NCBI GenBank assembly: GCA_041659525.1
Contig: JBAZYC010000001.1
Location: forward strand, 653,731 to 717,730
Length of the DNA stretch: 64,000 nt
Source of the DNA: an archaeon
Lineage (GTDB): Archaea > Iainarchaeota > Iainarchaeia > Iainarchaeales > JAAZKV01
Reading direction: 5' to 3'
Positions 2,949-50,676 of this stretch are shown here, in pieces; position 1 is the stretch's first letter, and the number at the start of each line of letters is the position of its first letter. A model generated the notes under the pieces. That model had not been told where the DNA came from, made no database searches, and saw only the letters and a program-made list of their open reading frames with translations. The translations under genes and the position numbers were made by a program.

Positions 2949-4037
2949 TTAATTTCCTTTTGTAGTTCTGCAAGTAAGGGTTTGATTATATTTTTTTAAG
3001 TGGGTTTTATCTTCTTTTTTTCCTTTGCTTTGCCCATCTTGTTTCTTTGATTCATTTTTTATTGTGTTAATCATTTCACAAGCTTTACATAATTCTTTTT
3101 CAGTTGGCTCCTGGCAGTTTTTGCATTCGTGCAGAGCTTTGTTTAGCACAATTTTTTGTTTCTCTGTTGGTTTGATGCTGTTTTTTAATTTTTCATAAAA
3201 TCTTAAAATAGAATATTCTGTTCCAGGGAATCTGTTCTCAAAAGTGTTTAGCATTTCTCGGTACTCATTTCTTTTTGCAGTCCAAGAATAAGGACAGCAT
3301 TCTTGCGAATAGTGTTTTATTCCTTTGAATGCACAATACGCGATTATTTCTTTTTCAGGAGTTTCATAAAGTGGTTTTATTCTTTTCACAAATCCTTCAT
3401 GATCAATTATTCCGCTTGTTGCACTCATTCTTTTCATTCTTTCAAAATCATTGTTGAAAACATTCATTACAAAGCTTTGAACTTCATCATCAAGGTTGTG
3501 TCCGGTTGCTAGTTTATCCGCATTAAATTTCTTCGCATATTTATTCATAATATTTCTTCTTAGAGTTCCGCAAAAAGCACAAGTTCCGCCAAGTTTCGGG
3601 TTTGATAAAATTAGGGGCATTAGTTTATCGTTAGTTATTCCAAATTCTTTCTTAAAAGAAATTACAGTACAATCTATTCCAAGTTCTTTACAAGTTTTTT
3701 CTGCGAGTTTTATTGCATTATCTCTGTATCCTTTTACCCCTTCATCAATCACAATTGCTTGGAGAGTATTGTTTCTTGAATAATATTTTTTCATTAAGTG
3801 TAATAGCACAGCTGAATCTTTTCCTCCGCTGTAAGCGATTAAGATTTTTTCTTTAGTTCTAAAAAGATTGTACTTTCTAATAGTTTTTTTGAATCTGTTT
3901 TCAAAGAATTGAACAAAGTGTTTCTCGCAAAAATAATGCGGTCCGTAAGCTAGTGTAATTGCAACTTTGGCATTACACTTATCACACTTTTTTGGAGTAG
4001 GGTTTTGAGTAGTTTCCACTTCTTTTTTGCCTGTCAT
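2949..4037 (-). CDS. PP-loop ATPase of the tRNA 2-thiolation family (TtuA/NcsA-like)
   Basis: SGGKDS PP-loop (AYSGGKDSAVLL). N-terminal CDKC...C..H zinc-finger pattern, internal GTCAFCG, C-terminal CKNC..CKAC. ATG at 4037 (track start 4058 is TTG). Confidence 0.8.
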   Translation of the reverse strand: MTGKKEVETTQNPTPKKCDKCNAKVAITLAYGPHYFCEKHFVQFFENRFKKTIRKYNLFRTKEKILIAYSGGKDSAVLLHLMKKYYSRNNTLQAIVIDEGVKGYRDNAIKLAEKTCKELGIDCTVISFKKEFGITNDKLMPLILSNPKLGGTCAFCGTLRRNIMNKYAKKFNADKLATGHNLDDEVQSFVMNVFNNDFERMKRMSATSGIIDHEGFVKRIKPLYETPEKEIIAYCAFKGIKHYSQECCPYSWTAKRNEYREMLNTFENRFPGTEYSILRFYEKLKNSIKPTEKQKIVLNKALHECKNCQEPTEKELCKACEMINTIKNESKKQDGQSKGKKEDKTHLKKYNQTLTCRTTKGN

Positions 4038-4060
4038 AGTGGAATTTATATATGACAAAG

Positions 4061-4075
4061 TTTAAAGGTATTTAG
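4061..4075. promoter_or_regulatory. TATA-like TTTAAA element between divergent transcription units
   Basis: AGTTTAAAGGTATTT lies ~25 nt from the ATG at 4037 (minus strand) and ~25 nt from the start of the GC-rich island (plus strand). TTTAAA is palindromic, so it could serve both directions. Confidence 0.3.
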
Positions 4076-4087
4076 TGGTTCTATGCG

Positions 4088-4345
4088 CCCAATTAGTTCT
4101 TTGTTTAAACCATCTGCTCAAGGGAAAAGAAAACCCTCTCCCAGACTTGCAAAAATAAGGGCGAGCGTTGAAGGAAGACTTGCAAGAGTAATTATGCGTA
4201 AAGCCCCTATTGGAATGAGTCCGCTTATGCGTCTTGCTGACGGGAACTTTTTTGTTTTACCAAAGCGAAAAGTTGTTTTGCCAAAAAAAATTAATGGAAG
4301 AGTTCCTCTTCGCTCTGTACTCAGGCGGGTACGCTAATAAGGTTT
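4088..4345 (+). ncRNA. Candidate structured ncRNA, class unresolved (a reduced RNase P RNA is the leading guess, SRP RNA not excluded)
   Basis: G+C-enriched island in AT-rich DNA. The overlapping 84-aa ORF uses CGC/CCG/GCG/CGG/GGG codons that neighbouring genes avoid, and it lacks a GGTGA SD. CCCAAUUAG (4088-4096) is complementary to CUAAUAAGG (4334-4342). GAGCG (4163-4167) pairs with CGCUC (4311-4315), and GUCCGC (4219-4224) with GCGGGU (4325-4330). A T-run follows at 4343-4353. Confidence 0.35.
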
Positions 4346-4446
4346 CTTTTTTTGGACCTTAACAGTAAATTTATAAATGCTTTTTTGGGAAGTTTTGTTA
4401 TACTGGTGAGTTAAACGGCAGTATTTTTTTAAATGGTGAATTTTAG

Positions 4447-5040
4447 ATGGGCGCAGCAAAATACATTAAGAAAGCATTCCAAAGTGAATGGAAAGGGGTA
4501 AAGGATTCTAATTACGATTATTCTTTAATGATGAGACAAAGAGGTCTTGCATACAGAAATGATGAGTTAGCTGTTGTTAAAGTTGATAAGCCTACTAATT
4601 TACCTTCTGCTAGAAGTGTTGGTTATAAAGCAAAGCAAGGAATTTTTGTTGTTAGAGTTAGAGTGAGAAAAGGAACAGGAACTCACCACAGACCAAAAAA
4701 CAAAAGAAGACCAAAGAGACAAGGACAAGCTAAACTTTCAAGAAAAATTAGTACTCAAGCAATGGCTGAACAAAAATCTTCAAAAAGATTTGAGAACGCT
4801 GAAAGTTTAGGTTCTTACAAAGTTGCTGAAGATGGTAAATGGCACTACTTTGAAGTTGTTATGGCTGATAGAGAAGCTTCAACAATTGCTAGTGACAAGA
4901 ATTTGAAATACTTAGCACACGGTCACAAAGGAAGATCAGAGAGAGGAAAGACTTTCGCTGGTGGATCAAATAAAGAATTTAACAAGAAGAACAAGAAAAA
5001 GCACAGAGCAAAAATTGCGCTTGATCACCACTTCGGTTAA
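4447..5040 (+). CDS. rpl15e: 50S ribosomal protein L15e
   Basis: MGAAKYIKKAFQ... N-terminus and a strongly basic RVRVRKGTGTHHRPKNKRRPKRQG segment typical of L15e. GGTGA SD. Confidence 0.9.
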   Translation: MGAAKYIKKAFQSEWKGVKDSNYDYSLMMRQRGLAYRNDELAVVKVDKPTNLPSARSVGYKAKQGIFVVRVRVRKGTGTHHRPKNKRRPKRQGQAKLSRKISTQAMAEQKSSKRFENAESLGSYKVAEDGKWHYFEVVMADREASTIASDKNLKYLAHGHKGRSERGKTFAGGSNKEFNKKNKKKHRAKIALDHHFG

Positions 5041-7013: not shown

Positions 7014-7715
7014 ATGGTTAGAGTAGAGGACGCTGTAGTTGCGCGCTTAGAACGATTCGGTTTTAAATTTGAAATACTAGTTGACCCTATTCTTGCTATG
7101 CAAGTAAAACACGGAATAGAAGTTCCAATGGATAAGTTACTTGCAATTGAAAGAGTATTCAAAGACCATAAAGCTGGAGATGAACAATCTCTTGAAAACA
7201 TGAAGAAAGCTTTTGCAACAGAAGATTTTTCAGTTATAGTAAAAAAAATTATTAATGATGGAGAAGTACAATTAACAACTGAACAAAGAAGACAGATGAT
7301 TGAGAGAAAGCGACTTGAAATAATTAATTTCATTTCAAGAAACACAATTAATCCTCAAACAAAAACTCCTCACCCTCCGCAGAGAATTGAGAATGCAATG
7401 GAAGTAGAAAAAATTCATATTGATCCGTTTAAGAGTGTAGAAGAACAAGTAAACGAAATTGTGAAAGCCATTAGACACTTAATTCCAATTTCAATGGAGA
7501 AAATTGATTTTGCAATTAAAGTACCAGCACAATATTCAGGAAAATGTGCTAGTATTATTAGAAAATATGAAATAAAAAAAGAAGAATGGTTAAATGATGG
7601 TTCACTTGCAGCTCATTTTGTTTTGCCCGCAGGAGCACAACAAGATTTGTTAAACGAACTCAATTCAGTAACACACGGAGAAATTGTAGTTAAAATAATT
7701 GGAACGGCAATGTAA
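7014..7715 (+). CDS. SBDS-family ribosome maturation protein (Sdo1)
   Basis: [22 protein letters not shown]-domain start; ~233 aa; conserved position between psmA and rrp4. Confidence 0.85.
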
Positions 7716-34309: not shown

Positions 34310-34403
34310 AATATCATTTTAAGCAAACAGCCTTTTAAATTATTGTTAAGTGTTATGCCGCAATATTAACCATTTTTTAAACAAATCAGTACATTCTGTG
34401 TAT

Positions 34404-35531
34404 ATGAGGGTTTGTATTCTGTTTCACAAGTTCCAACCAGAGAACGAAGGTATTTCCATATCCATCGATCGCTTAACAAAAAACCTCTCAAATGTTGAGT
34501 TTCATATAATTTCGTCAAAAAAGGACTCATCAGGCGAAGATATTTTGAGAACCTCAATTGAAACAACTAAATATGCAAAAAATGTGTTTCTTCACCGAGT
34601 AGGTTTTATCAATACTGTAGATTCTGAGTGGTACCCAGACAGCTTGGATAATTTTTGTTTTGTGATTGAACAATTACACACAAAATACAAGTTTGATTTA
34701 ATACATTCTTACTACCTTACCCCAAATGGGTACATAGGAACATTAATTGCAAAAAAGCTTGGAATTCCTTCTCTTGTAGGGGTGCGTGGAAACGACCTCG
34801 GACGTAATTACCTTGATTATCGCAGACTTTTTTTAATATACTGGACTTTACAACATGCAGATTATCTTACCTTTTTGAATGAAGACTTACGAACCACAGC
34901 TAATATTATTTCACCTTGCAAAAATAAATCAAAAGTCGTAATGAACACTGCATACTTTCCATATCCTGAACGCGAAAACAAAGTTCTGCATAAGGAACTC
35001 ATATTCGGCTATTGGGGCGATATGAAAAGAAAAAAAGGAATTATTTATTTCCTTGACGCAATAACAAAGATTAAGAACATGCCATTTGCAGTCAAACTCT
35101 TGGGTGACATAAGCTCTGAAGAAAGAAACATTTATGAAAAAATAATTGCAAAAGAAAAACTCTCACACAAAGTAACCTTTTATTCAAGCATCAAACATGA
35201 CCAAGTTGCTGATTGGGTATCACAAATTGATGTCTTCGTATTTCCAACAATTAATGACGGATGCCCAAATGTCTTATTTGAAGCAATGTATTTGAGTAAA
35301 TGCATTATCAGCACAAATATTACTGCAGTATCCCAAGTCTTCAAAGAAGGGGAAGCAAAGCTTGTTCCCCCCAGAGACTCGAACGCATTAAGTAATGCAA
35401 TACTCTACTTTATCAAAAACCCTGAAAAAGTAACTATATTTGGAAAGAAAGCAAAAAAAGCCCTTGCTAGGTGCAACGTCAAAATCGAGTGTGAAGAATA
35501 TAACAAGATCTATAAAAAATTAGTTAAGTGA
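34404..35531 (+). CDS. Glycosyltransferase family 4
   Basis: MRVCILFHKF start (ATG 34404) and C-terminal DGCPNVLFEAMYLSKCIIST (E..G...EAM motif variant). Confidence 0.7.
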   Translation: MRVCILFHKFQPENEGISISIDRLTKNLSNVEFHIISSKKDSSGEDILRTSIETTKYAKNVFLHRVGFINTVDSEWYPDSLDNFCFVIEQLHTKYKFDLIHSYYLTPNGYIGTLIAKKLGIPSLVGVRGNDLGRNYLDYRRLFLIYWTLQHADYLTFLNEDLRTTANIISPCKNKSKVVMNTAYFPYPERENKVLHKELIFGYWGDMKRKKGIIYFLDAITKIKNMPFAVKLLGDISSEERNIYEKIIAKEKLSHKVTFYSSIKHDQVADWVSQIDVFVFPTINDGCPNVLFEAMYLSKCIISTNITAVSQVFKEGEAKLVPPRDSNALSNAILYFIKNPEKVTIFGKKAKKALARCNVKIECEEYNKIYKKLVK

Positions 35532-36429: not shown

Positions 36430-37218
36430 TTATGCAATAAAAACGCTTTTATAACCCCAATAAATATCTCGCTTTTCTTTTTTTGGATCAAGTAATTTTA
36501 AATCACATGACTTCTTTTTATCCAATATAAGTCTTAAATAAAGTGTTTTATCCATAGTCTTTTTTATAATTAAGTTAGTGGTAAGTTTCTCTTTTTTCAT
36601 ACGTTTGGTTTGCACAAACACAGAATATTCTTTTTCTTTGAATGATTGTAAAAATTTTTTTAAAGATAGGGGTTTGTTGTTGTGAAGAACTATAAACCTA
36701 GGCTGATATTTTTGTAATGTTTTTGGATATTTGCTAGAATAGTTATCAATATTGAGTAACGCTATGCCACCAATCTTTAAACAACGCCAAACTTCCTCAA
36801 TCACTTTATCTTTTCGTTTAATAAATTGTATTGATACCTGACTAACTATTATATCAAAAAAGGAATTCGGAAATCTGATTTTTTCAGCGTTATAAAACGC
36901 TAACTTTGGCAGGTGTATTGTTTGAATATCTTTTTGAGTAAAGATTTTGTAATAAAGAGCAGTTGTAATCAAACTATTCGAGTTTCTAATTATGTGGTTT
37001 GCTTTGTTATTTATACCATGGATCTCAATGTTAGGGAATGCTTTTGCTAATTCAACCAACAGCTTTCCCTCGCCACATCCAATCTCTAAAAGACGTACTT
37101 TTTTATTTGACTCACCCATCGACATTATTAGTTTGGTTAGAGTGGTTTTACCAAAACGGTCACCGAATTCTTTTACTCCCCTACTTCGTGTTATTTCTCC
37201 TCTAGGGTATTCTGTCAT
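36430..37218 (-). CDS. Class I SAM-dependent methyltransferase
   Basis: Motif I VRLLEIGCGEGKL. Last gene of the minus-strand operon 36430..41512. Confidence 0.75.
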   Translation of the reverse strand: MTEYPRGEITRSRGVKEFGDRFGKTTLTKLIMSMGESNKKVRLLEIGCGEGKLLVELAKAFPNIEIHGINNKANHIIRNSNSLITTALYYKIFTQKDIQTIHLPKLAFYNAEKIRFPNSFFDIIVSQVSIQFIKRKDKVIEEVWRCLKIGGIALLNIDNYSSKYPKTLQKYQPRFIVLHNNKPLSLKKFLQSFKEKEYSVFVQTKRMKKEKLTTNLIIKKTMDKTLYLRLILDKKKSCDLKLLDPKKEKRDIYWGYKSVFIA

Positions 37219-37224
37219 ACAGCA

Positions 37225-38241
37225 TCACAGTTTTAGTTTAGTGGCCATCGAGCGATTTTGGTAAGTGTATATGCAGTTTTTGCAAAATGAATAATTAATA
37301 TGGAGGCAGGATAATCTAAAGGCGGTTGCTTGCTTGCCAAACCAGATTTCATTAAGAGGGGTTGAGAAAGTGGAACCAATTTGGTTAGTTTGGTTTTCAA
37401 GAGCAAGACAGCAAGGGTATGCTTTACCATCAATATCAATTTCAAGCTGGAAGTAGGGTAAGAAACATTTTTTTTCATTTATAATTCCGTTTTCAAATCC
37501 TCGTTCAATGCTCTCAACTGGCAATTCAAGTTTTTTTGCAAGAGTAATCACTTTGTTTTTCTGGTTGATTAGTTTTGATAACCATTTGGTATTGGGTTCA
37601 AAATTTTTTCCTCCGACCTTACTTCTAATAGTAGTAAATGAAATGCTGTCATAATTATGAGTATTTTTAATCAACAAAATGTCTTCTAATTCTTGGTAGT
37701 TTTTTTCTGATAGAGTAGTGCTTATGCAAATTCTAATTTGGTTTCTTTTTTTATTTTTATTTAACGTATCAATTGCTTTTATTATTTTGTCAAAATTTCC
37801 TTTTACTCCTCTGATTGTGTCGTGGGTATTAGCAATTGCACCGTCAAGCGAAAAAACAAAAGTGAGTTTCATGTTCTTTATTTGTGCAAGCAAGTCTTTG
37901 TATTTATTTTGAAATAATAATCCGTTTGTTATTATAGTGGTGTTTATTTCTTTTTTTTCTAGAAAATTAAGAATTTGAATTATTTGTGGGTGGAGTAATG
38001 GTTCGCCACCTGATAGAATGACCTTTTTCAACCCAAGTTTTTTTGCGCTTGTTATTAATTTACAAAATGTTTCATAATCAAAAAAGGATATATCTTTCTG
38101 AGTCCAATAGTCACAAAAATCACAATGGGAATTACATGAATTAGTTAGTTTAAATTTTAATATTTCAAGTTTAAATGGTTCTGACTTTTGAAAGGATACC
38201 TTAAGTTCTGGTAGTTCATTTTTGTCAATATCTTTGTGCAT
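37225..38241 (-). CDS. Radical SAM protein with a Cys-rich C-terminal auxiliary (SPASM/twitch-like) region
   Basis: LTNSCNSHCDFCDYW (CX3CX2C), SGGEPLLHP, C-terminal CFLPY...PCCLALEN...CKNCIY. ATG at 38241 avoids an overlap with the DegT gene (track start 38286). Confidence 0.75.
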   Translation of the reverse strand: MHKDIDKNELPELKVSFQKSEPFKLEILKFKLTNSCNSHCDFCDYWTQKDISFFDYETFCKLITSAKKLGLKKVILSGGEPLLHPQIIQILNFLEKKEINTTIITNGLLFQNKYKDLLAQIKNMKLTFVFSLDGAIANTHDTIRGVKGNFDKIIKAIDTLNKNKKRNQIRICISTTLSEKNYQELEDILLIKNTHNYDSISFTTIRSKVGGKNFEPNTKWLSKLINQKNKVITLAKKLELPVESIERGFENGIINEKKCFLPYFQLEIDIDGKAYPCCLALENQTNQIGSTFSTPLNEIWFGKQATAFRLSCLHINYSFCKNCIYTYQNRSMATKLKL

Positions 38242-38251
38242 AATATAACCA

Positions 38252-39358
38252 TCAGGATTTGTAATAACTTTCAATTGTCTTAACAATATAATTTATTTGT
38301 CTTGTTGAAAGATCAGGGTACATTGGAAGCGATATTATTTCCTTTACAACCGTTTCAGTTTTGGGTAATTCTTTAGAGTACTTAGCAAAAATAGGTTGTT
38401 GGTGCAGTGGTATTGGGTAATGAATTCCAGAAGCTATGCCATTTTGTTTTAACTTGTCAACAAGATTTTTTCTATCCTCTTGTTCAACTCGAATAACATA
38501 TTGATGAAATACATGTTTTGCGTTTTGTCTAGTGAGGGGTGTTGCAACAAGAGTTTTCAATTTTTTTGAATATTGTTTTGCTACTCTTATGCGTTTCATG
38601 TTTTGTATATCAAGTGTAGTTAAGTTTTGTCTTCCCATAGCCGCCCTTATTTCATCAAGTCTAAAGTTCATAGAAACTTCAGAACTTGAGAATTTTCCAT
38701 TTTGGCTTGAATAATCTCTTCCTTGATCTCTAAATATCTGACATTTTTTGTTTAATTCAAGATTGTTTGTAAGAACCATCCCGCCATCACCAAGTACTGA
38801 CAGGTTTTTTGTTGGAAAGAACGAAAAACAACTCAAGTCGCCAAAACTCCCTGCTTTTTTACCATTTAATTCAGCTCCGTGTGCTTGTGCTGTGTCTTCA
38901 ATAAAAGCTATGTTATTTTGCTTACAAAATCTTTCTATTTTTTCATTATCCGCAGTTTGACCATATAAATCAACGGCTATAAGTGCCTTTACATTCGTTA
39001 AGTCTTGTTCTTTTAGTGAAACATAATCAATAGTAAAGTATTCATCAATATCAACGAATACTGGTACTGCGCCAAGCATTAATATTGGAGATGCAGTTCC
39101 AACAAAAGTGTGTGAAGGTACAATAATTTTGTCACCGGCCTTTATCCCAAGTGCTTTTAATGCTATATAAATTGCGACAGTGCCACTACTTACCCCCACT
39201 CCAAATTTTCGTTCACAATAATTAGCAAATTTTTCTTCAAAAGACTCTAAAACAGGTCCTTTAACATACACTCCACTTTCAAGTGTTTTTTTTACAGCAT
39301 TTAACATTGCTGATGAAATTTTTTGGGGTTTGAATAATGGAATCAAACTTTCACCCAA
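38252..39358 (-). CDS. DegT/DnrJ/EryC1/StrS-family PLP-dependent sugar aminotransferase
   Basis: FEEKFANYC, TAQAHGA, and FSFFPTKNLSVLGDGG carrying the PLP lysine. Confidence 0.85.
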   Translation of the reverse strand: MGESLIPLFKPQKISSAMLNAVKKTLESGVYVKGPVLESFEEKFANYCERKFGVGVSSGTVAIYIALKALGIKAGDKIIVPSHTFVGTASPILMLGAVPVFVDIDEYFTIDYVSLKEQDLTNVKALIAVDLYGQTADNEKIERFCKQNNIAFIEDTAQAHGAELNGKKAGSFGDLSCFSFFPTKNLSVLGDGGMVLTNNLELNKKCQIFRDQGRDYSSQNGKFSSSEVSMNFRLDEIRAAMGRQNLTTLDIQNMKRIRVAKQYSKKLKTLVATPLTRQNAKHVFHQYVIRVEQEDRKNLVDKLKQNGIASGIHYPIPLHQQPIFAKYSKELPKTETVVKEIISLPMYPDLSTRQINYIVKTIESYYKS

Positions 39359-40323
39359 GTTTTCTTTTTTGAAGATTTGTACAAACTTTCAATGACTTCC
39401 ATTGTGCTAATTATTGCTTTAAAGTCATTAGTATTGTTGTTAATTGTTGTAACAAAGGATTGGAATGCACGCAAGTTGTTCTCAATATTCGTTTCATAAG
39501 GCGCAAAATCGAAAATGTGAGTGTCTTCTTTGAATTGTTTCATTAATACTTTACCACCTAAATTAATATTGCTTACAAGCAATTCTCCATTTGTCCCACT
39601 AATCTCAAGCTCATCATGTAAATCAGGGTAAGTACAGGTACTTAACCTAAAATAAACAATAGTGCCATTCGCATATTCAAATACTACTAGTGCGGTGTCT
39701 TCGACATTTGTTTTGGTAAACTTATTAATTTTTGTGACACAATAGACTCTTTTTGGTTTTCCCAACCATTGTATAGTGAAATCAATAAAGTGTATTGCTT
39801 GATTTATTATCACTCCTCCACCAGCTTGTTTTTTACTTCCTCTCCAACCAGTATAATAGGATTCATCACGGAGCCAATTCATTTTGAAATTTACAAATAC
39901 TATTTTCCCAAATACTTTTGTTAAGTCATTATTTTTGAGGGCTTTAAATATTCTTGATTGTCTATATTGAAAATTAACTTGAAGTCGGCATTTGTTTCTT
40001 TTACATGCATTAATTATTCTTTTAGTATCTTTTAGGTTAGTTGTTATTGGTTTTTCAATATACAAGTGTTTGCCTTTTTTTGCAGTAAGGAGAGCAATTT
40101 TTGTGTGGGTTGCTGGGGGAGTCGCTATTATAAGCGCATCCACAAAGTTAAGCATTTCAGGAACACTTTTTGCGACAACAGCGTTTAGTTTATTCCCAAT
40201 TAGATTTGCCCGAGTATTATCAATATCATAGACCTGTGTTATTTGAGCATTTTTAATTTTGCTAAGTATTGTCACATATTTTTCTGCAATTTGCCCGCAA
40301 CCAACTAAACCAAAATTAATCAT
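39343..40323 (-). CDS. Gfo/Idh/MocA-family NAD-dependent sugar oxidoreductase
   Basis: INFGLVGCGQIAEKY Rossmann start and the LYIEKP motif. Pairing with the DegT gene resembles WbpB/WbpE-type 3-amino-sugar synthesis. Confidence 0.8.
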   Translation of the reverse strand: MINFGLVGCGQIAEKYVTILSKIKNAQITQVYDIDNTRANLIGNKLNAVVAKSVPEMLNFVDALIIATPPATHTKIALLTAKKGKHLYIEKPITTNLKDTKRIINACKRNKCRLQVNFQYRQSRIFKALKNNDLTKVFGKIVFVNFKMNWLRDESYYTGWRGSKKQAGGGVIINQAIHFIDFTIQWLGKPKRVYCVTKINKFTKTNVEDTALVVFEYANGTIVYFRLSTCTYPDLHDELEISGTNGELLVSNINLGGKVLMKQFKEDTHIFDFAPYETNIENNLRAFQSFVTTINNNTNDFKAIISTMEVIESLYKSSKKKTWVKV

Positions 40324-41512
40324 GTTTTGCCCCAAGGATAGTAAGAATTTGCTTAGCTGTTTTTCTGTTATCTAAGTTTATTTCATAATCAGCTTTTTTT
40401 GACTTTAGGACTTCTCTAAATGTTTTTCTAAAACTAGCATAATCCACATATCGTTCATCAAAGAATTCAATTAGCCCTTGCCTTGAAACTTTTATACTTC
40501 TAAACATTTCTTCCTCAGTTCTTCCAACTTCAGGGAATAATATTGCTTTAGCGTTTGTTAGTAATATTTCAGCCACTGTATTATATCCTGCTCTGCTAAT
40601 AACAATGTCGGCTACATTTATTTCCTCAATTAGGCTTGAGCTAAAATTAGAGAGTATAATGTTTGGATTGTTTCTGGTCTGTGCTTCAATTTGTTTTTTT
40701 ATTTTTGCATCCAAATATAAATCTAACTGGATTTTTAACAAGTATTTTTTTGGCAGTTCATTAAATGCAGTAAGCACATATTGAAATATTTTTTCAATAT
40801 CTCCTATTCTCCCCAAAGTTACTAAAATAAGTTTTTTGTTTTTTAAATGAAGTCGCTTTATTGTTGCTTGTTTGTCTAAATCTTGTTTATTTTTTGCAGT
40901 AATTAGTCCATGATACGTTATTTTTGAACAAAAATCGTCTGAAAAACCATATTCTTTTTTGTAATCAATAACGCTTTTATTATCCATCACAAAAACATGG
41001 TCATACAAATTAGGAACATCTATTGATTCAAGTAAATGTTGATTCCTAGTGTAGTTTACAAGTAATTCCTTTGGCGAATCAATTATACCTCTTGATACTA
41101 ACCCTAACTTGAAAGCTTTTCGGTTTCGCCACTTTTCAAGAATTATTGGAGCAAGCTCCCAAGCTTGACCCGTCATATTATGTTCCACAAGTACTATATC
41201 TGGTTTAAATGATTCAAAAGTTACATTAATGATGTTTTGTCGTAACTTGAATAATTCTGATAAATCCATTTTGAGATATCTTGGCACGAGCTTTTGTTTT
41301 CCATTTTCAAATAGTATTTTAGTTGAAGGTAATTTTATTACCTCAATATTATTTTGAATAAAAACTTGAGGGATATCAGTTCCAGCAATAATTAGTATTT
41401 CTGTGTTAGGATTAGTTGATTTTATGCCCAAAGCCAATGCGAGAACCCTGTTTGTGTGTCCATGTCCAACGGAATTATTGGTGTATAGCAATATTTTGGG
41501 GTTCTTTTTCAT
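40316..41512 (-). CDS. GT-B glycosyltransferase with a MurG/GT28-like C-terminal domain
   Basis: KILLYTNNSVGHGHTNRVLALALGI N-terminus and ISRAGYNTVAEILLTNAKAILFP C-terminal motif. Confidence 0.65.
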   Translation of the reverse strand: MKKNPKILLYTNNSVGHGHTNRVLALALGIKSTNPNTEILIIAGTDIPQVFIQNNIEVIKLPSTKILFENGKQKLVPRYLKMDLSELFKLRQNIINVTFESFKPDIVLVEHNMTGQAWELAPIILEKWRNRKAFKLGLVSRGIIDSPKELLVNYTRNQHLLESIDVPNLYDHVFVMDNKSVIDYKKEYGFSDDFCSKITYHGLITAKNKQDLDKQATIKRLHLKNKKLILVTLGRIGDIEKIFQYVLTAFNELPKKYLLKIQLDLYLDAKIKKQIEAQTRNNPNIILSNFSSSLIEEINVADIVISRAGYNTVAEILLTNAKAILFPEVGRTEEEMFRSIKVSRQGLIEFFDERYVDYASFRKTFREVLKSKKADYEINLDNRKTAKQILTILGAKHD

Positions 41513-42232: not shown

Positions 42233-42622
42233 ATGAAGCATGTTGATTCAGTAATTTTGTTTGTTTTTAATAAAAATAAAGATAAGGTTTTGATGATTGA
42301 ACGAGTAAAGAATCACTTTGGCTTTGATTGGGGCTTTGTGTGTGGAAAATTTGAAGAGGGGGAAACGGCAGACGAGTGTGCAGTAAGAGAGCTTTATGAA
42401 GAATTGGGGCTCAAAGGGCTTGTTTTAAAAAAATTTAAACAAGTAAAACACAAAAAAGATAATGAAACTTATTATCATTATTATTATGTCACTACAATTT
42501 CTGAATCTGCTCAAAAAATTAATTTCAAAAAAGACGAGATTAAGAGTGTTGTTTGGTTCAAACTTAATGAATTACCTAAAAGTAGGGCTCCTGATGATCC
42601 ATTTGAGGCAATTTCAAAATAA
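42233..42622 (+). CDS. Nudix hydrolase (A)
   Basis: Complete Nudix box GKFEEGETADECAVRELYEELGL. AAGGTG SD. Confidence 0.85.
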   Translation: MKHVDSVILFVFNKNKDKVLMIERVKNHFGFDWGFVCGKFEEGETADECAVRELYEELGLKGLVLKKFKQVKHKKDNETYYHYYYVTTISESAQKINFKKDEIKSVVWFKLNELPKSRAPDDPFEAISK

Positions 42623-42965: not shown

Positions 42966-43532
42966 TTATTTTTTTGTTTTTAATTGCCTTTTTAACATTA
43001 GCTCTGGTTTTCCTGCATTGAGCTCTTTACTTGTTTTTATGTTTAATGATTTAATGAAATCGTTTATTTTTTTCTTTACAATTAAGGGGTTTTTGGTTGT
43101 TTCTTTTGATTCAATTTCTAAAAACACTCCCAAACCTTTTACCTCTTCTAAAACTATTTCAAACTCTTTTGTTTCAAAAGTGTGTTTGGTATTATTCAAT
43201 TCGACTAGTTTTGTGTAACCTAATAAGCTGATTATTTTGTTAGTAGTTTCGAATTCTTTTATTTCAGTCTCATATTCATCTGAATAAACCCAAACTCCTT
43301 TTTTGTCAAATCTATCTATTTTGTATGCTAAAAAGTATTTGCCTTGTTTTGATCTTATTCTAAAACACTCCTTTGGAAAAGAGTTTCCTTTTGGTTTAAG
43401 TTTTTCGTTTTGTTCGTGAAAATAGTAAATGTCTTTAGTGTGCTTTACGATTTCCTTTGATGTTTTTGAAAGTTTCTTTAAGGCAATTTCCTTATCTTCA
43501 AATAACTCCACTAATACTTCTATTTCTTTCAT
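42966..43532 (-). CDS. CYTH-domain protein (CyaB / triphosphate tunnel metalloenzyme family)
   Basis: N-terminal KEIEVLVE strand and C-terminal EEVKGLGVFLEIE, typical of class IV cyclase/ThTPase-type CYTH proteins. Confidence 0.7.
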   Translation of the reverse strand: MKEIEVLVELFEDKEIALKKLSKTSKEIVKHTKDIYYFHEQNEKLKPKGNSFPKECFRIRSKQGKYFLAYKIDRFDKKGVWVYSDEYETEIKEFETTNKIISLLGYTKLVELNNTKHTFETKEFEIVLEEVKGLGVFLEIESKETTKNPLIVKKKINDFIKSLNIKTSKELNAGKPELMLKRQLKTKK

Positions 43533-44002
43533 TTTTTCATCTTCAAAAATTTTTCAATAGCTTCACTTGTTTCTTTGAAGGTGAATGTTTTTTTAGTTGT
43601 TTGGATGGGGGTAAAAAATATTTCGCTTATTTCACTGGTTTTTGGTTTTAAATCACTTGGAGAACCCAAATATTCTACAAAAAAGAGGGTTGTTTTTTGG
43701 CTTGAGTATTTTGCGTTTTCTTTTTTTGGAAAATCAAAATTAATGCCAAAAGGCAATTTTTTTAGTACCCTAATCTTGTTTGTTCCCAATTCTTCATTTA
43801 TTTCTCTCCAAATGGCCTGCTCAGGAGTTTCACCGAGTTTGATTCCTCCTTTAGGAATATCTATTTCTTCAATTTTTTCGTTTTCCAAAATATCTTCTCG
43901 CATTACTTTTTTTACAGCGACAATTTGATTAGGTTTCCCTTTACAAACAATAATTGCTCCAACAGCATTTCTAATTGGTAACTGATTTTCGATTGATTCC
44001 AT
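43529..44002 (-). CDS. Nudix hydrolase (B)
   Basis: Nudix box GGIKLGETPEQAIWREINEELG. 4-nt overlap with the CYTH gene start. Confidence 0.85.
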   Translation of the reverse strand: MESIENQLPIRNAVGAIIVCKGKPNQIVAVKKVMREDILENEKIEEIDIPKGGIKLGETPEQAIWREINEELGTNKIRVLKKLPFGINFDFPKKENAKYSSQKTTLFFVEYLGSPSDLKPKTSEISEIFFTPIQTTKKTFTFKETSEAIEKFLKMKK

Positions 44003-44092: not shown

Positions 44093-44557
44093 TTAATATT
44101 TTTTTATTAGTAGTTCTGTAACTTTTTCTTTGTCATAAGTTATTTTAGCAGTGAATATTCCTTTTTTGTTTAATAATGGTAGGAAATAGTAGTCTCCTTT
44201 CCACATGTTAAGTTTTTTTAGATTTTTGTTTTCTATCCATTCCAAGTCTCCTTCATTGCATTCAATTAGTTTTCCAGAAAACTTTTTTGATATGAATACA
44301 AAAACCATTGTGTATTCACCGTTATTTGTTTGGGGGTAAGTTATTATTCCTTTGAGAATTGGTTCTATTTGTAGTCCTGTTTCTTCAAGTGATTCTCTTT
44401 TTACTGCTTCTTCTGGGCTTTCGTTATGTTCTATTTTTCCTCCGACACCATTCCATTTTCCTTTATGGATATCGTTTTCTTTTTTTGTACGATGAAGCAT
44501 TAAGGTTTTTCCATTTTTTTGAATATAACACAAAACAGTCATTTTTATAGGAGTCAT
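44093..44557 (-). CDS. Nudix hydrolase (C), MutT-like
   Basis: Nudix box GGKIEHNESPEEAVKRESLEETGL. Confidence 0.85.
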   Translation of the reverse strand: MTPIKMTVLCYIQKNGKTLMLHRTKKENDIHKGKWNGVGGKIEHNESPEEAVKRESLEETGLQIEPILKGIITYPQTNNGEYTMVFVFISKKFSGKLIECNEGDLEWIENKNLKKLNMWKGDYYFLPLLNKKGIFTAKITYDKEKVTELLIKKY

Positions 44558-44676: not shown

Positions 44677-45855
44677 TCAACGTCTCATTAATGTCTCGTA
44701 TACTTCAACTCTTTTTTTCAAGTATTTATTGAAGTTGTTATTTTTTTCAATCCATTTTCTGCCATTTAATCCTATTTTTTTTAATTCTTTTTTATTTGAA
44801 ATTATATAATCTAATTTTTCTTCGTATTGTTTTGGTTCGGAAGGGTTAATTGAAATTATTCCGTCTTTGAATTCAGTTAGTTCATGGTAAAGGTTTATTT
44901 CATTACTAACAAGGACTGGTTTTCCTGTGCTTAGGGCTTCTCTTGGTAAAATTGGCCCATGGATATTTACTCCAAAGTCGTGTTCTACAGATAGTAAGCA
45001 ATCTGAAGATTTCATTATTGCCGGAACCCTCCAAGGAGTAACAAAGTTGTGAAAAAATACTCTTTCACTAATACCAAGTTTTGTTAGGTGTTGTTTTAGT
45101 TCACTCTCATCTATCCCTGTTCCAATAAGTATTAAGGAATAATCATTTTTAATTTTAGAAAGAGCATTTGTTAATTCAAAAAGCCCTTTTTTTGAATCTA
45201 TTTTACCAAAATGTGTTAATATTGTTCCCGTTGGGTTTTTTCCAATTAATTTTTTTAAATTATCTTTTTTCACTTTTGGACTGAACTCGTTTTCATCAAC
45301 AGCTTTTTTTATTTCAAATACTTTATTTTTATTTACTCCTAACTTGGTAAACAAACTTGCTCCCCTTGGAAAAGTAACTATCGCGTTTGCTGAAAGAATA
45401 GTCCTCTTTAAAGCACTAATATAGTGCGGTGAGTTTAGAATTCTTGTCATGTCACTTCCTGCATGAGTTAAGACTAAGGGTTTATCAAATTGTTTTGAAA
45501 GGTAATGCGCAACAAATCCATATGGTAATAAGTAGGATCCTTCAATTACATCAATATCTTCGTTTTCTAATATTTCTATTCCTTTAGAAATAAGTTTTAT
45601 AGTAATTGGATTAAAGCTAGGGATAAATCCTGGCATTTCAAAGGGATTTGTAGAGTAAAGGTTAACATTTTTTGGTTTTAATTTGTCCAAATCTTCAACT
45701 GTTAATTGTTCTCTATAAGGGTCTTCGACCTCATAAGAATTTGTAAGAACAAATATTTTGTGTCCTCTTTTTCCCAGTCCTTTACAATACCAATAGGCGT
45801 TTGAGCTTTCGCCTCCTTCAATCGGGGGATATTTTGATATTTTTAATATATTCAA
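44677..45855 (-). CDS. Glycosyltransferase family 4, third gene of the peptide/rSAM operon
   Basis: A TTG start at 45855, 4 nt after the rSAM stop, gives MNILKISKYPPIEGGESS, a typical GT4 N-terminus. C-terminal PREALSTGKPVLVS. The track start 45909 would overlap the rSAM gene by 50 nt. Confidence 0.7.
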   Translation of the reverse strand: MNILKISKYPPIEGGESSNAYWYCKGLGKRGHKIFVLTNSYEVEDPYREQLTVEDLDKLKPKNVNLYSTNPFEMPGFIPSFNPITIKLISKGIEILENEDIDVIEGSYLLPYGFVAHYLSKQFDKPLVLTHAGSDMTRILNSPHYISALKRTILSANAIVTFPRGASLFTKLGVNKNKVFEIKKAVDENEFSPKVKKDNLKKLIGKNPTGTILTHFGKIDSKKGLFELTNALSKIKNDYSLILIGTGIDESELKQHLTKLGISERVFFHNFVTPWRVPAIMKSSDCLLSVEHDFGVNIHGPILPREALSTGKPVLVSNEINLYHELTEFKDGIISINPSEPKQYEEKLDYIISNKKELKKIGLNGRKWIEKNNNFNKYLKKRVEVYETLMRR

Positions 45856-45859
45856 ATCA

Positions 45860-46888
45860 TCATCTCCAACATTGTGGATCTGGGGAATAGTAAGATCCAG
45901 AAACGGCATATGCTACTGCGGGGCAGCCTCGACAATAGTTGAGGAGTTCGCATTTATTACATTTTTCCATTTTTTCAATCTCTCTCATTTTGTTTAATTC
46001 CTTTGATTTAAGGAATATATCTTTTAGGCTTTGATTGGGTACTTTTCCAATAACTAGAGGCATTCTTCTGCAAGCCATTACTTGTCCGTCTGAAAGAATG
46101 GATAAGTGTCGTATTCCTATTGAGCATCCTCCTGAAATAGTTTTTACTTTCTTTTTTGGATAAAACAAACCCAGGTCATGGTATAACAATGTCCATAAGT
46201 GGTCTTTTCTGCCAAATTTTGTTTTTGTTTTGCCATTAAGTTTTCGGTATTCTTCTAAAACTTCAAGCAAAAATTCTTTATATTCCTGCGGCTTAAAAAG
46301 TTGGGATTTAAGTTGTTTTCCTTTTCCCGTTGGTACTAGTCTAGCAAAATCAAAAACATCTACTTTGTCTTTTATGAAATGAATTAGAGGGATTAGATCT
46401 TTTGAATTTGTTTTGCTTAAAGTAAACATGCAAACTGTTTTTATTCTATTTTTTTTTAGAATACCAAATGCTCGTAAGCTGTCTTTAAAGCTTCCTTTTT
46501 TTCTAAAAAAATCATGTGTTTCTTCAAGACCGTCCAAACTTATTTGATAACTTTTTACCCCAAGTTCTTTCATTTTTTTTGCAAGTTCGTTTGTTACAAG
46601 ATAAGGGTTTCCGAGTATAGATACAGTTACTTTTCTTTTTTTGCATTCTTCAAGTAAATCAAAAAAATCTTTTCTTAATAATGGGTCGCCCCCAGAAAAA
46701 CTTATGTGGGGAGTTGCTCCTAAGTAGTCACTCGTTTTAACAAAGTCATCAAGAACTTTTATACATTCAGTATAGCTTAATTGGTTTTCTACTTCTGATT
46801 TATAGGTTGATGAATCATACATATAACAATGCTTACATTTTTGTTCGCATGAAGCGGTTATATGCCATTGTATAATAAAATTAGGTAT
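45860..46888 (-). CDS. Radical SAM enzyme with a C-terminal SPASM domain (candidate peptide maturase)
   Basis: The in-frame extension upstream of the track ATG (46822) encodes IIQWHITASCEQKCKHCY, the CX3CX2C cluster motif. SGGDPLL follows. SPASM cysteines: GGCSIG, ACRR, CNKCELLNYCRGC, DPQCW. No ATG/GTG/TTG lies upstream before the stop at 46907-46909, so the start is provisionally ATA at 46888, 7 nt after AGGTG. Confidence 0.75.
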   Translation of the reverse strand: MPNFIIQWHITASCEQKCKHCYMYDSSTYKSEVENQLSYTECIKVLDDFVKTSDYLGATPHISFSGGDPLLRKDFFDLLEECKKRKVTVSILGNPYLVTNELAKKMKELGVKSYQISLDGLEETHDFFRKKGSFKDSLRAFGILKKNRIKTVCMFTLSKTNSKDLIPLIHFIKDKVDVFDFARLVPTGKGKQLKSQLFKPQEYKEFLLEVLEEYRKLNGKTKTKFGRKDHLWTLLYHDLGLFYPKKKVKTISGGCSIGIRHLSILSDGQVMACRRMPLVIGKVPNQSLKDIFLKSKELNKMREIEKMEKCNKCELLNYCRGCPAVAYAVSGSYYSPDPQCWR

Positions 46889-46938
46889 TTCGATACACCT
46901 ATTTAGTTAAGATTTGTTTAGTCATTTTTTGACTTATA

Positions 46939-47064
46939 CTAATCTCCAGTACCGCCGCCACCGCAGCCTCCGCAACCACCGCATTCAGTTTGTGCAGATT
47001 TTAGTGATTTATCAGTTTTATTCCAATAGTCGTATTTTTCTAAAATGCTTTTTGGTGAACTCAT
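46939..47064 (-). CDS. Unannotated 41-aa Cys/Gly-rich peptide, candidate RiPP precursor
   Basis: MSSPKSILEKYDYWNKTDKSLKSAQTECGGCGGCGGGGTGD. GAGGGG lies 5 nt upstream of the ATG. The peptide gene ends 50 nt upstream of the rSAM/SPASM gene on the same strand. Below the 60-aa cutoff of the supplied track. Confidence 0.6.
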   Translation of the reverse strand: MSSPKSILEKYDYWNKTDKSLKSAQTECGGCGGCGGGGTGD

Positions 47065-47246
47065 GAAAACCCCTCTAATAAAATAACGGCAAATCCAATT
47101 AATAATACCTTCGGTTATTTAAAAATGAAAAGATCTACTCAAGAGCTTTTGAGTGAGCATGATAATGAGTAATTAGTCCGAATTAAACTAAATCTTTTCT
47201 TTGAATCTAATCCTCTTTTTTAAGCTTTTTCTCACATTCTATTGTT

Positions 47247-49107: not shown

Positions 49108-49560
49108 ATGATTTGTATTATAGCATTAGTAGTTTTCGCAATACTTGGCCTTATTTCAGCTAAGTATAGAGCTTATTTCTTTGAAGCCTTGGATTGTGTT
49201 TTCAAAAAAGCTACTCTAAGAAAGTGCACTACTTCTTTTGATAAAAAAATGAAGATGAAGATTACTACTAGATTATCAAAATTAAATAGTTCTCTTGGAA
49301 GAACTGTATTCAAGCACTTTGAAACCATTTCTTGGATTTTTACTATTCTAATGATTGCTTCAATGATTTGGTCTGCTTACGTTGGATTCATGGGTGTTTA
49401 CAATTGGGTTGCTTTTGGGAATTGTTATGGGCCTGATAGTACCCAGGCTTGCGTTTTAAATAATTTAACAGGAAAAGTTCAACCAGCTGGGTATACTATT
49501 ATAACTGACACTAATTTGAGTTGTGATACGAATTTGCTTTCGGGGCAAAATTTGAAGTGA
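49108..49560 (+). CDS. Hypothetical membrane protein with conserved-looking cysteines
   Basis: Two hydrophobic helices and six Cys, including GNCYGPDSTQAC. Lies upstream of a thioredoxin-fold-like exported protein. Confidence 0.5.
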   Translation: MICIIALVVFAILGLISAKYRAYFFEALDCVFKKATLRKCTTSFDKKMKMKITTRLSKLNSSLGRTVFKHFETISWIFTILMIASMIWSAYVGFMGVYNWVAFGNCYGPDSTQACVLNNLTGKVQPAGYTIITDTNLSCDTNLLSGQNLK

Positions 49561-49635
49561 TTTTTTGCGCGAGGAAGATTTTTAACCATTATTTGTTTAT
49601 TTTTTTCAATTGACTAACAATTGGAGGGTTTTGAA

Positions 49636-50676
49636 ATGAGTAATAAACACGTTAAACACAATGCTTCTGTTCATGAGCACAAAACAGAAAGCGCCCCTAA
49701 GGATAAAAAAATTCTTGGGTTCGAAATGAAAACAATAGTGCTTTTAGCTGGGTTAGTTTTAATTTCAGCAATATTAGCTACTTGGTTTGGATTTGCAGCA
49801 GGAAGCGCAAGTGCAGTTCCAACAACAGTTGCAGTAGATAAAACTGTTTTGATGAGTACTGTTGAGAGTTATATTAATAGTAATTTATTAGTAGACCCGG
49901 GCGTTTCAGCAAAAATAATTGATGCTAACGAAGTAGGCAACGGTCTTTACGCATTGTCTTTTGAAATATACCAAAACAATGCAAAAGTTAGTGCAGGAAC
50001 ATTATACGCAAATAAAGATAAAGTTCTAATAGGTCAGGCATTTGATCTTAATACTCCTTTGCCTAAAGCAGAAACACCTGCAACACCTACAGAAACTCAA
50101 GTTAAATCAGACAAACCAGTTGTTGATTTATATGTAATGAGTTTTTGTCCGTATGGTAACAAAGCTGAAGACACAATGAAACCTGTTTTTGATTTGTTAG
50201 CAAGTAAAGTAACTTTCAATGTTCACTACATTGTAAATGTTAGTGGAACAAATGTTCAATCTCTTCACGGAGCACCTGAAGTTGTGCAAAACGAAAGAGA
50301 AGCTTGTGTTCTAAAGAACTACGATTTGAACAAGTGGTTCGAATTCGCAACTTATGTAAATACTAATTGCGGAAGTAATGGTTCTTGCTGGGAAGCTGGA
50401 GCTAAGACTTTAGGAATTGACACTGCAAAAATTAGTAATTGTGTTACAACTGAAGGAGTTGCTTTAATGCAAGCTAATGCTGATGCATCTAACGCAGCTA
50501 ATGCAAATGGCTCACCTACATTGTTAATCAATGGTGTATCAAGCACAGCTGTTTACCAATACGGTAACTCAGAAGCCTACAAGCAAGCTATTTGCTCTGC
50601 ATTTAATACTGCTCCAAGTGAATGTGAAACAGTATTAAGCGGTAGTACTAGCACTGCAGCAGGCGGATCTTGCTAA
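49636..50676 (+). CDS. Membrane-anchored extracytoplasmic protein, possible GILT/DsbA-like thiol-redox fold
   Basis: N-terminal TM anchor. VDLYVMSFCPYGNKAE ... SLHGAPEVVQNEREAC recalls the GILT-family pattern (LCP.C ... HG..E...N...C). Several C-terminal Cys. GGAGGG SD before the ATG at 49636. Confidence 0.4.
   Translation: MSNKHVKHNASVHEHKTESAPKDKKILGFEMKTIVLLAGLVLISAILATWFGFAAGSASAVPTTVAVDKTVLMSTVESYINSNLLVDPGVSAKIIDANEVGNGLYALSFEIYQNNAKVSAGTLYANKDKVLIGQAFDLNTPLPKAETPATPTETQVKSDKPVVDLYVMSFCPYGNKAEDTMKPVFDLLASKVTFNVHYIVNVSGTNVQSLHGAPEVVQNEREACVLKNYDLNKWFEFATYVNTNCGSNGSCWEAGAKTLGIDTAKISNCVTTEGVALMQANADASNAANANGSPTLLINGVSSTAVYQYGNSEAYKQAICSAFNTAPSECETVLSGSTSTAAGGSC

Follow-up and report, generated by a model that had tools for sequence, protein, structure and literature searches.

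The peptide gene and its neighbours form a compact cassette

We analysed a 64,000-nucleotide stretch of an archaeal contig (JBAZYC010000001.1, positions 653,731 to 717,730; hereafter the window), in which an initial annotation had picked out a candidate archaeal operon for a peptide made on the ribosome and modified after translation (RiPP). Three genes follow one another on the minus strand: a short open reading frame (ORF) ending in a Gly/Cys-rich segment, a radical S-adenosylmethionine (SAM) enzyme with a SPASM domain, and a glycosyltransferase (GT) of the GT4 type. Genes for aNOP56, an aCPSF-like nuclease and NMD3 in the window bear out the archaeal setting proposed at the outset. The GC content of the window is 32% and the source contig is about 985 kb long. 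The features of the cassette are as follows.

46939..47064, minus strand: putative precursor peptide gene, 41 amino acids plus stop, MSSPKSILEKYDYWNKTDKSLKSAQTECGGCGGCGGGGTGD (ORF listing of the window)
47070..47075, minus strand: GAGGGG, Shine-Dalgarno-like, 5 nt 5' of the peptide ATG (read from the sequence)
47023..47037, minus strand: leader motif K-Y-D-Y-W, residues 10-14 of the peptide, corresponding to a conserved [KRT][YF]xxW element (peptide alignment)
46942..46983, minus strand: core CGGCGGCGGGGTGD, residues 28-41, with three Cys and GGCG twice (sequence, GC content and pattern count)
45860..46888, minus strand: radical SAM/SPASM enzyme, 342 amino acids from ATA, stop at 45862..45860 (translation, NCBIfam, Pfam and homologue starts)
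46896..46900, minus strand: AGGTG, Shine-Dalgarno-like, 7 nt before the probable radical SAM start
46826..46849, minus strand: CX3CX2C (CEQKCKHC), the radical-SAM [4Fe-4S] ligands (translation)
45869..46126, minus strand: SPASM region with GGC, ACRR, CNKC..C..GC and DPQCW, containing seven invariant Cys (Pfam)
44677..45855, minus strand: GT4 glycosyltransferase, 392 amino acids, TTG start 4 nt after the radical SAM stop (Pfam)

The initial annotation had described a 41-residue ORF at 47064..46939 preceded at 5 nt by GAGGGG, a radical SAM gene fifty nucleotides downstream with a CEQKCKHC motif and a Cys-rich SPASM C-terminus, and a GT4 gene four nucleotides beyond its stop. Each of these elements was found where it had been placed, and 50 nt separate the stop of the peptide gene from ATA 46888, the probable radical SAM start.

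The peptide couples a conserved leader motif to a Gly/Cys core

The peptide ORF, which is also called, as a gene of 41 amino acids, in a second assembly (L095), ends in TAG and contains no in-frame TGA. Its core, the composition of which can be written (CGG)3GGTGD, has a GC content of 69% over 42 nt against 32% overall, the highest of all 42-nt stretches in the 64 kb. The degenerate Cys-Gly-Gly-Cys-Gly pattern TGYGGNGGNTGYGG, allowed at most one mismatch, matches the window four times where 0.09 matches are expected by chance; three of the four overlap within the core and the fourth is an isolated one-mismatch site at 7368. The core is thus more than a chance feature. Read-through from the peptide into the radical SAM gene was considered and rejected, since the two lie in different frames with several intervening stops.

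A 14-column leader profile, built with the window peptide left out, ranks the window ORF first among 1703 ORFs (E = 0.049). In the peptide alignment every sequence has the Trp of the [KRT][YF]xxW motif and nearly every one the Tyr at the third position ahead of it, and this element is presumed to be the site at which the radical SAM enzyme recognises its substrate. No NCBIfam model, TIGR04341 included, matched the window peptide even at E<=10, nor did any match the related Gly/Cys-core peptides; Pfam returned sub-threshold matches only (DUF6587, E 0.069; FeoB_associated, E 0.28).

Related peptides were sought around homologues of the enzyme. A scan of metagenome contigs with the single protein gave only eight loci, none of them close. 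The set used here comprises 12 distinct loci with DNA, besides the window, at which a homologous GT4 gene accompanies the radical SAM gene (GT-linked loci), with L104 as a distant extra case. A peptide with a Trp-containing leader and a Gly/Cys(/Ser) core lies near the radical SAM gene at 10 of the 12, in DPANN archaea, Argoarchaeum, Methanobacteriota, Planctomycetota and the candidate phyla radiation (CPR), and is encoded 5' of the radical SAM gene, between it and the GT gene, or 3' of the GT gene. Representative peptides are listed below; comparable ones occur in L102 (Planctomycetota), L067 (Shapirobacteria) and L010.

L003 (radical SAM enzyme 74% identical): MNNVLKKFAYWKETS...ECGGGSCGSGACSTSCSGSGCDND
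L001 (radical SAM enzyme 77% identical): MSSTVLKKYDYWNRKQ...DCGGAGGCSTSCSGSGCGADD, 3' of the GT gene
L103 (archaeal metagenome-assembled genome, MAG): ...TYNYWKPQ...SCGGGCGCGGCSCGGG
L101 (Argoarchaeum): ...RKYMVWHQ...CNSCAGCGGGGCGGCGGP
L008 (Methanobacteriota): ...RRYAFW...ECGGCDGGCGGCGGGCGGCGGGC...

An identical copy of the L001 peptide is encoded in the MAG of a Diapherotrites archaeon. Across the GT-linked cores, Gly directly precedes 37 of the 64 Cys. A profile of ten of these peptides retrieved 16 further called proteins, all unnamed or annotated as 'hypothetical protein', and several of them lie on contigs equal in size to contigs with radical SAM or GT matches. The search for small Cys-rich ORFs beside homologous radical SAM genes that the initial annotation had called for returned both the leader motif and Gly/Cys cores, next to homologous radical SAM and GT4 genes, from many genomes. 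With a conserved leader motif and a variable Cys-rich core beside the same enzyme in many genomes, the window has, as judged from sequence, what generally marks a RiPP locus: a gene-encoded putative precursor with leader and core next to a modifying enzyme.

Relatives of the enzyme also occur with other peptides. A genome scan found a classical ACGX-repeat peptide upstream of the radical SAM gene in most bacterial homologues, a common type of which has the leader MALKNLxxWNxK; in CPR homologues the leaders read ..NYWNKQ.. and the cores SCGQGSCNCGGGCNGEC. Those DPANN relatives that have no GT (L004-6, L097-100) keep a peptide with the Trp-containing leader, and their cores are of the types DSDCDG...WP[ED] and CCANDMPC. 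In five of these (L004-L006, L097-L098) the precursor upstream of the radical SAM gene follows the pattern M..IL[QK][RG][FY]AHW..NDKMSNRLDSDCDG.....WP[ED], with a single Cys, a conserved Trp-Pro-acid C-terminus and no GT; the chemistry of this subgroup is probably different.

The radical SAM gene lacks a canonical start codon

Pfam places a Radical_SAM domain (3e-23) and a SPASM domain (3e-9) in the second gene product, which reads CEQKCKHC, GGCSIG, ACRR, CNKCELLNYCRGC and DPQCW, and all seven SPASM cysteines (C257, C275, C312, C315, C321, C324 and C342) are invariant in an alignment of 27 sequences. An AlphaFold model of the enzyme has a pLDDT of 91.8. The reading frame is open from 46906, following an in-frame stop at 46909, and there is no in-frame ATG, GTG or TTG between that stop and the CX3CX2C motif. 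Homologous genes start seven codons before the Trp of a QWH motif, at ATG (L001, L003), TTG (L096) or GTG (L099), and in most of the homologous loci examined a Shine-Dalgarno site resembling GGTGAT or GGGGGAT precedes the start by 6-7 nt. In L005 and L097 a GTG stands in frame three codons further upstream, and a canonical start is missing only in the window. There, ATA occupies the exact codon of the homologue starts (46888), seven nucleotides after AGGTG, and initiation at this near-cognate codon is the likeliest arrangement on sequence grounds; alternatively, the gene may have been recently weakened. Assembly error was considered as an explanation: a second assembly (L095, Logan SRR18595301) is identical, although both assemblies may come from one sample.

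The public gene call for this enzyme (P0001, 320 amino acids) starts at ATG 46822, downstream of the cluster cysteines, so that the called protein would lack the residues that bind the SAM cluster. Several close homologues are likewise called about 23 residues short. Counted from ATA, CX3CX2C begins at residue 17 (residue 19 in the queried sequence), which leaves no room for an N-terminal RiPP recognition element (RRE), a caveat that the initial annotation had already raised.

The enzyme belongs beside the ACGX family, and its nearest characterised relative is SbtM

The best NCBIfam match of the enzyme is TIGR04340, 'radical SAM/SPASM domain protein, ACGX system' (340.1 bits, 1e-101, below the cut-off of 400), with an alignment spanning profile positions 2-339 of 341, and the JGI label of the gene reads 'radical SAM/SPASM domain protein of ACGX system'. 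Second comes TIGR04082, the thio(seleno)oxazole maturase SbtM (225.6 bits, below the cut-off of 350), in which only profile positions 199-504 are matched and an N-terminal part of about 190 residues has no counterpart. Against TIGR04340, scores of 281-341 bits are reached by the GT-linked homologues of Argoarchaeum, Planctomycetota and Methanobacteriota, compared with 440-530 bits for classical ACGX enzymes (Treponema, Collinsella and a CPR bacterium); their order of families and their scores resemble those of the window enzyme, with SkfB, PapB and StsB at 64-92 bits. A simple neighbour-joining tree, computed without support values, puts the classical and CPR enzymes in a clade of their own and the GT-linked enzymes outside it. 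By sequence, then, the system can be described as a sister of the ACGX family with a Gly/Cys core and a linked GT4; the ACGX family is itself already named in silico and uncharacterised. Literature searches on ACGX, TIGR04340 and TIGR04341 returned nothing relevant in the library searched, and when the search was widened to archaeal SPASM RiPPs, this family was not described there either.

Together with the homologous peptides, these placements uphold the idea of a candidate archaeal RiPP operon. They also bear on whether the small ORF is a substrate at all. Were the ORF there by chance, or its product a mini-protein that binds metal and stays unmodified, the enzyme and the GT would act on a cofactor, as AhbD and NirJ do, or on a lipid or a glycan. 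The cofactor models do give sizeable partial scores (AhbD 176 bits; NirJ2 148, NirJ1 131 and NirJ 126), three loci have the radical SAM gene near a GT and no detectable peptide (L012, L073 and L104), and a second, unrelated radical SAM/SPASM gene lies in a sugar-modification cluster of the window (37225-38286). All the cofactor models nevertheless fall far short of their cut-offs (500 for AhbD, 500-650 for the NirJ group), and the enzyme does not group with AhbD or NirJ, two of the alternatives against which the initial annotation had wished it checked (176 and 148 bits against 500-bit cut-offs). The ORF and its leader motif are moreover conserved in archaea and bacteria alike, although the genes change order, the core stands out in composition from a genome of 32% GC, and nearly all of the closest solved folds modify peptides or proteins. 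We regard this explanation as very improbable.

In the accounts given by PMC9204691 and PMC11002830, which summarise Lewis et al. 2021, SbtM abstracts hydrogen from the C-beta of Cys or Sec and, within a conserved GGUG motif, turns the Gly-Cys(Sec) unit into a thio(seleno)oxazole with a loss of 4 Da; the product absorbs at 304 nm and retains a thiol that can be alkylated. PMC9204691 names SbtM from Geobacter and Desulfobacteria only. Because SbtM acts on GGUG and the window core carries GGCG twice, we tentatively favour, at a little under an even chance, a cassette for a ribosomal peptide that would be modified after translation by SbtM-like thiooxazole formation and then glycosylated by the GT4 enzyme.

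The initial annotation had instead framed the arrangement as that of thioether-type RiPPs. The RiPP-operon part of that reading is supported, whereas the thioether type is not established, SbtM being the nearest characterised enzyme and a maker of thio(seleno)oxazoles. Thioether formation is nonetheless the main rival: with the same cassette and the same peptide as substrate, the enzyme would join Cys sulfur, within the peptide, to the alpha-carbon of Gly (sactionine) or to a side-chain carbon (ranthionine), as happens in sactipeptides, ranthipeptides and SCIFF. The solved structures closest in sequence, SkfB (2e-12) and CteB (2e-7), both form thioethers, and a Foldseek search of the model found the nearest solved folds to be SkfB, PqqE, SuiB, anSME, ChlB and CteB (E 1e-16 to 1e-11, TM-score 0.66-0.77), three of which (SkfB, SuiB and CteB) speak for this chemistry; BlsE, with a nucleoside substrate, is also among the nearest folds, and the remainder modify peptides or proteins. 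The seven-Cys SPASM domain is complete, and Gly-rich Cys cores could offer C-alpha acceptors. The structural neighbours thus support thioether cross-linking, but the profile ranking does not: the SkfB, PapB, StsB and AlbA models reach only 64-92 bits against 205-226 for SbtM (for the window enzyme, StsB 81.5 against a cut-off of 625 and PapB 79.5 against 340), and the core motif matches that of the SbtM substrate. Sacti- and ranthipeptide synthases usually carry an RRE domain, which this enzyme lacks. We judge thioether formation possible but considerably less than an even prospect.

A GT4 gene accompanies the enzyme across lineages

The third gene product matches Glycos_transf_1 (76.9 bits, 2e-21) and Glyco_transf_4 (31.7 bits), both above the Pfam gathering scores; GT4-type domains are the only ones found, and the GT2 domain (Glycos_transf_2) of glycocin-type S-glycosyltransferases (SunS/ThuS) is not among them. 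Its start is most likely TTG 45855; homologues begin MNILK[IF]SKYPPI[EQ]GG. A homologous GT4 gene lies beside the radical SAM gene in L001, L002/3, L096, L103, the P0080 contig and L012, and also in L067/L091, L101, L102, L008, L010 and L073. The GT start falls 4 nt past the radical SAM stop or overlaps it in the window and in L001, L002/3, L096, L103 and L012, while gene order and neighbouring genes differ between the loci. A 35%-identical GT in a Woesearchaeota MAG lies 1.5 kb from a radical SAM/SPASM gene. By an indirect proxy, at least 22 of the best 120 GT matches are on contigs equal in size to those of the best 120 radical SAM matches.

In the neighbour-joining tree the GT-less DPANN loci branch from inside the group of GT-linked DPANN loci, and their cores are not of the Gly/Cys type, so that presence of the GT tracks the Gly/Cys core. 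This matters for a further explanation, in which the peptide is the substrate but undergoes some other chemistry (formylglycine-like oxidation of Cys, epimerisation or C-C cross-linking), or in which the GT4 enzyme serves envelope glycan synthesis and is kept in place by lineage synteny. For the former speaks the close structural match to anSME (TM-score 0.73); for the latter, the sugar-modification genes (GFO/IDH/MocA, DegT and other GTs) near the cassette in both the window and L001, and the DPANN relatives, 61-62% identical in the radical SAM enzyme, that have a peptide without a GT. Yet GT and radical SAM genes co-occur across several archaeal and bacterial lineages with differing flanks and gene order, the contig-size proxy agrees with such linkage, and those GT-less relatives are the very ones with other cores. 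We consider this explanation unlikely.

The GT-linked loci vary in other respects. In three archaeal loci, but not in the window, a GNAT acetyltransferase gene directly follows the GT4 gene (L001 6350-6640, L103 5637-6113 and the P0080 contig); it may belong to the cassette as a fourth gene that is not always present. At L067/L091 (Candidatus Shapirobacteria) the GT4 enzyme continues at its C-terminus into a fused P-loop kinase domain (AAA_33 / zeta-toxin-like; L067:4960-6705) and the precursor peptide lies between the radical SAM and GT genes; the radical SAM matches there cover only residues 6-243, so this gene may be truncated. In L073 (a Nanoarchaeota MAG, 3119-5035) the radical SAM frame runs on without a break from a methyltransferase-like region at the N-terminus, the whole being a 638-residue ORF, with the GT4 gene 450 nt downstream.

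Proposed pathway

In the thiooxazole reading that we favour, the 41-residue precursor would consist of a hydrophilic leader carrying the [KRT][YF]xxW recognition motif and the C-terminal Gly/Cys core. The RRE-less radical SAM/SPASM enzyme would bind the leader directly and bring 5'-deoxyadenosyl radical chemistry to bear on the core cysteines, taking hydrogen from the Cys C-beta so that each Gly-Cys unit is oxidised in two steps to a 5-thiooxazole, with a loss of 4 Da per Cys, at two or three of the core cysteines. The translationally coupled GT4 enzyme would then add a sugar to the modified peptide, with Thr39 or a sulfur as the likely site. What results would be a peptide rich in thiols and active towards metals or in redox reactions, formed without oxygen.

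Several points weigh against this scheme. The enzyme reaches the curated cut-off of neither TIGR04340 nor TIGR04082 and has no equivalent of the N-terminal part of SbtM, and the solved structures nearest to it in sequence belong to thioether-forming enzymes. Because it has no canonical start codon, the window gene could be poorly expressed or inactive. The known peptide S- or O-glycosyltransferases of RiPP pathways, such as SunS and ThuS, are GT2 and not GT4 enzymes. Six-frame ORFs, the leader profile and a filter for Cys-rich tails disclosed no peptide within about 4 kb of the cassette in L012 and L073 (and none in L104). Our literature searches found no experiment on any member of the GT-linked or ACGX families. 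Finally, as the initial annotation had noted for protease and exporter genes, no protease, exporter or immunity gene lies near the cassette; this absence, together with that of an RRE, would fit an intracellular product and direct leader recognition.

Neighbouring genes

The cassette has as neighbours a divergent methionyl-tRNA synthetase gene, a sugar-modification cluster, and one CYTH gene with three NUDIX genes. An Rfam scan of the window found one tRNA and nothing else. The neighbouring features are listed here.

34350-35531: GT4 gene of the sugar cluster
36430-37218: methyltransferase gene of the sugar cluster
37225-38286, minus strand: second radical SAM/SPASM gene, 353 amino acids, inside the sugar cluster
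38252-39358: DegT aminotransferase gene of the sugar cluster
39343-40335: GFO/IDH/MocA gene of the sugar cluster
40316-41512: GT28-like gene of the sugar cluster
42233-42622, plus strand; 43529-44002, minus strand; 44093-44557, minus strand: three NUDIX hydrolase genes between the sugar cluster and the GT4 gene of the cassette
42966-43532, minus strand: CYTH-domain gene, packed among the NUDIX genes
49108-49560, plus strand: small Cys-containing membrane protein, 5' of the next gene
49621-50676, plus strand: secreted protein with a GILT/DsbA-like thiol-reductase domain, after the small membrane protein

L001 has related NUDIX and CYTH neighbours, and this block therefore looks like lineage synteny. 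The second radical SAM enzyme was rejected as a paralogue of the first, being 28% identical over the core only and belonging to no specific NCBIfam family. The products of 49108-49560 and 49621-50676 could form a thiol-disulfide pair, encoded 2-3 kb from the Cys-rich peptide beyond the methionyl-tRNA synthetase gene.

More distant homologues of the cassette enzyme have partners of their own. In L087-L089, at about 4062-4664, a gene of the AgrB family (Pfam 8e-44) directly follows radical SAM homologues of 48-49% identity, and no Cys-rich peptide was found upstream of these; AgrB is the peptide-processing protein of Agr quorum sensing. In L021, L064, L022, L017 and similar classical ACGX loci the radical SAM gene is followed by a redox enzyme (zinc alcohol dehydrogenase-like, nitroreductase, or PNPOx-like with ferredoxin domains), and in CPR loci by a TehB-like methyltransferase. 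Judging from the genes that follow the radical SAM gene, the wider ACGX family may have to do with redox chemistry or detoxification.

Significance

The genome appears small and DPANN-like, and that a peptide, an Fe-S radical enzyme and a GT are kept together in it suggests that the cell has a use for the product. Many other uncultured anaerobes, both archaea and bacteria, have this gene set as well. If the inference from SbtM is right, these systems would match, without needing oxygen, the metal-binding thiooxazole peptides recently discovered in aerobic bacteria, and a GT4 enzyme would join the peptide-glycosylation toolbox; to our knowledge, no RiPP pathway has a GT4-family peptide glycosyltransferase, and we know of no radical-SAM RiPP system yet characterised in archaea. 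More speculatively, and with clear doubt, the loci may represent a new RiPP class in which poly-(Gly-Cys) peptides are converted anaerobically to multi-thiooxazole or multi-thioether glycopeptides by an RRE-less, leader-binding radical SAM/SPASM enzyme and a GT4 peptide glycosyltransferase, ranging from DPANN and CPR to methanogen relatives and with a metal-binding or redox role. Of immediate use are the leader motif [KRT][YF]xxW with more than 25 natural precursor sequences, and the annotation error exposed in the public radical SAM call, which omits the SAM-cluster cysteines.

Comparison with known systems

The window GT has the GT4-type fold of SdgA/SdgB and GtfA, which glycosylate low-complexity protein repeats. 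Its NCBIfam match to SdgA is weak (E 4e-4, 19 bits against a cut-off of 800), as is that to TIGR04157 (glyco_rSAM_CFB; E 1e-3, 18 bits against a cut-off of 400), a glycosyltransferase family tied by its name to radical SAM genes in Bacteroidota, and orthology is not implied.

Among solved radical SAM enzymes with SPASM or twitch domains, SkfB (6EFN), SuiB (5V1T), anSME (4K37), CteB (5WGG), PqqE (6C8V) and ChlB (9GMC) have the overall fold of the window enzyme, at only 14-21% identity and with unrelated substrates. SkfB, SuiB and CteB have N-terminal RRE-type domains, whereas the window enzyme has none; anSME likewise does without an RRE and oxidises the Cys C-beta of a peptide.

Should thiooxazole formation hold, the window product would, like the bufferins (MNIO thiooxazole metallophores; bioRxiv 10.1101/2024.03.18.585515), be a thiooxazole peptide derived from Cys and able to bind soft metals. 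The analogy is functional only and implies no homology, the bufferin enzymes belonging to the unrelated, oxygen-dependent DUF692/MNIO family.

SbtM/SbtMa is the nearest experimentally characterised family. Both enzymes are SPASM proteins, and the GGUG of the SbtM substrate corresponds to the GGCG that occurs twice in the window core, a Gly-Gly-(Sec/Cys)-Gly arrangement in either case. The window locus differs in having neither selenocysteine nor a selenocysteine insertion sequence (SECIS) element, and SbtM has some 190 extra N-terminal residues, the window enzyme remaining below its 350-bit cut-off; we know of no GT partner for SbtM.

The closest relationship is to the ACGX system, defined in silico by the enzyme family TIGR04340 (rSAM_ACGX) and the ACGX-repeat peptide family TIGR04341. 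ACGX repeats are absent from the window peptide, which gives no match to TIGR04341, a model against which a classical peptide (L066), taken as a positive control, scores 58.6 bits, and the partner gene in the window is a GT4 gene rather than the zinc alcohol dehydrogenase-like, nitroreductase, PNPOx-like or TehB-like genes of classical loci. The two also share several features: TIGR04340 is the best-scoring family for the window enzyme, over its full length; both enzymes are short radical SAM/SPASM proteins without an RRE, that of the window having about 340 residues, CX3CX2C and the full set of SPASM cysteines; both accompany a small adjacent peptide with Cys-Gly units; and the Trp-containing leader of the common classical type, MALKNLxxWNxK, resembles KYDYWNK in the window.

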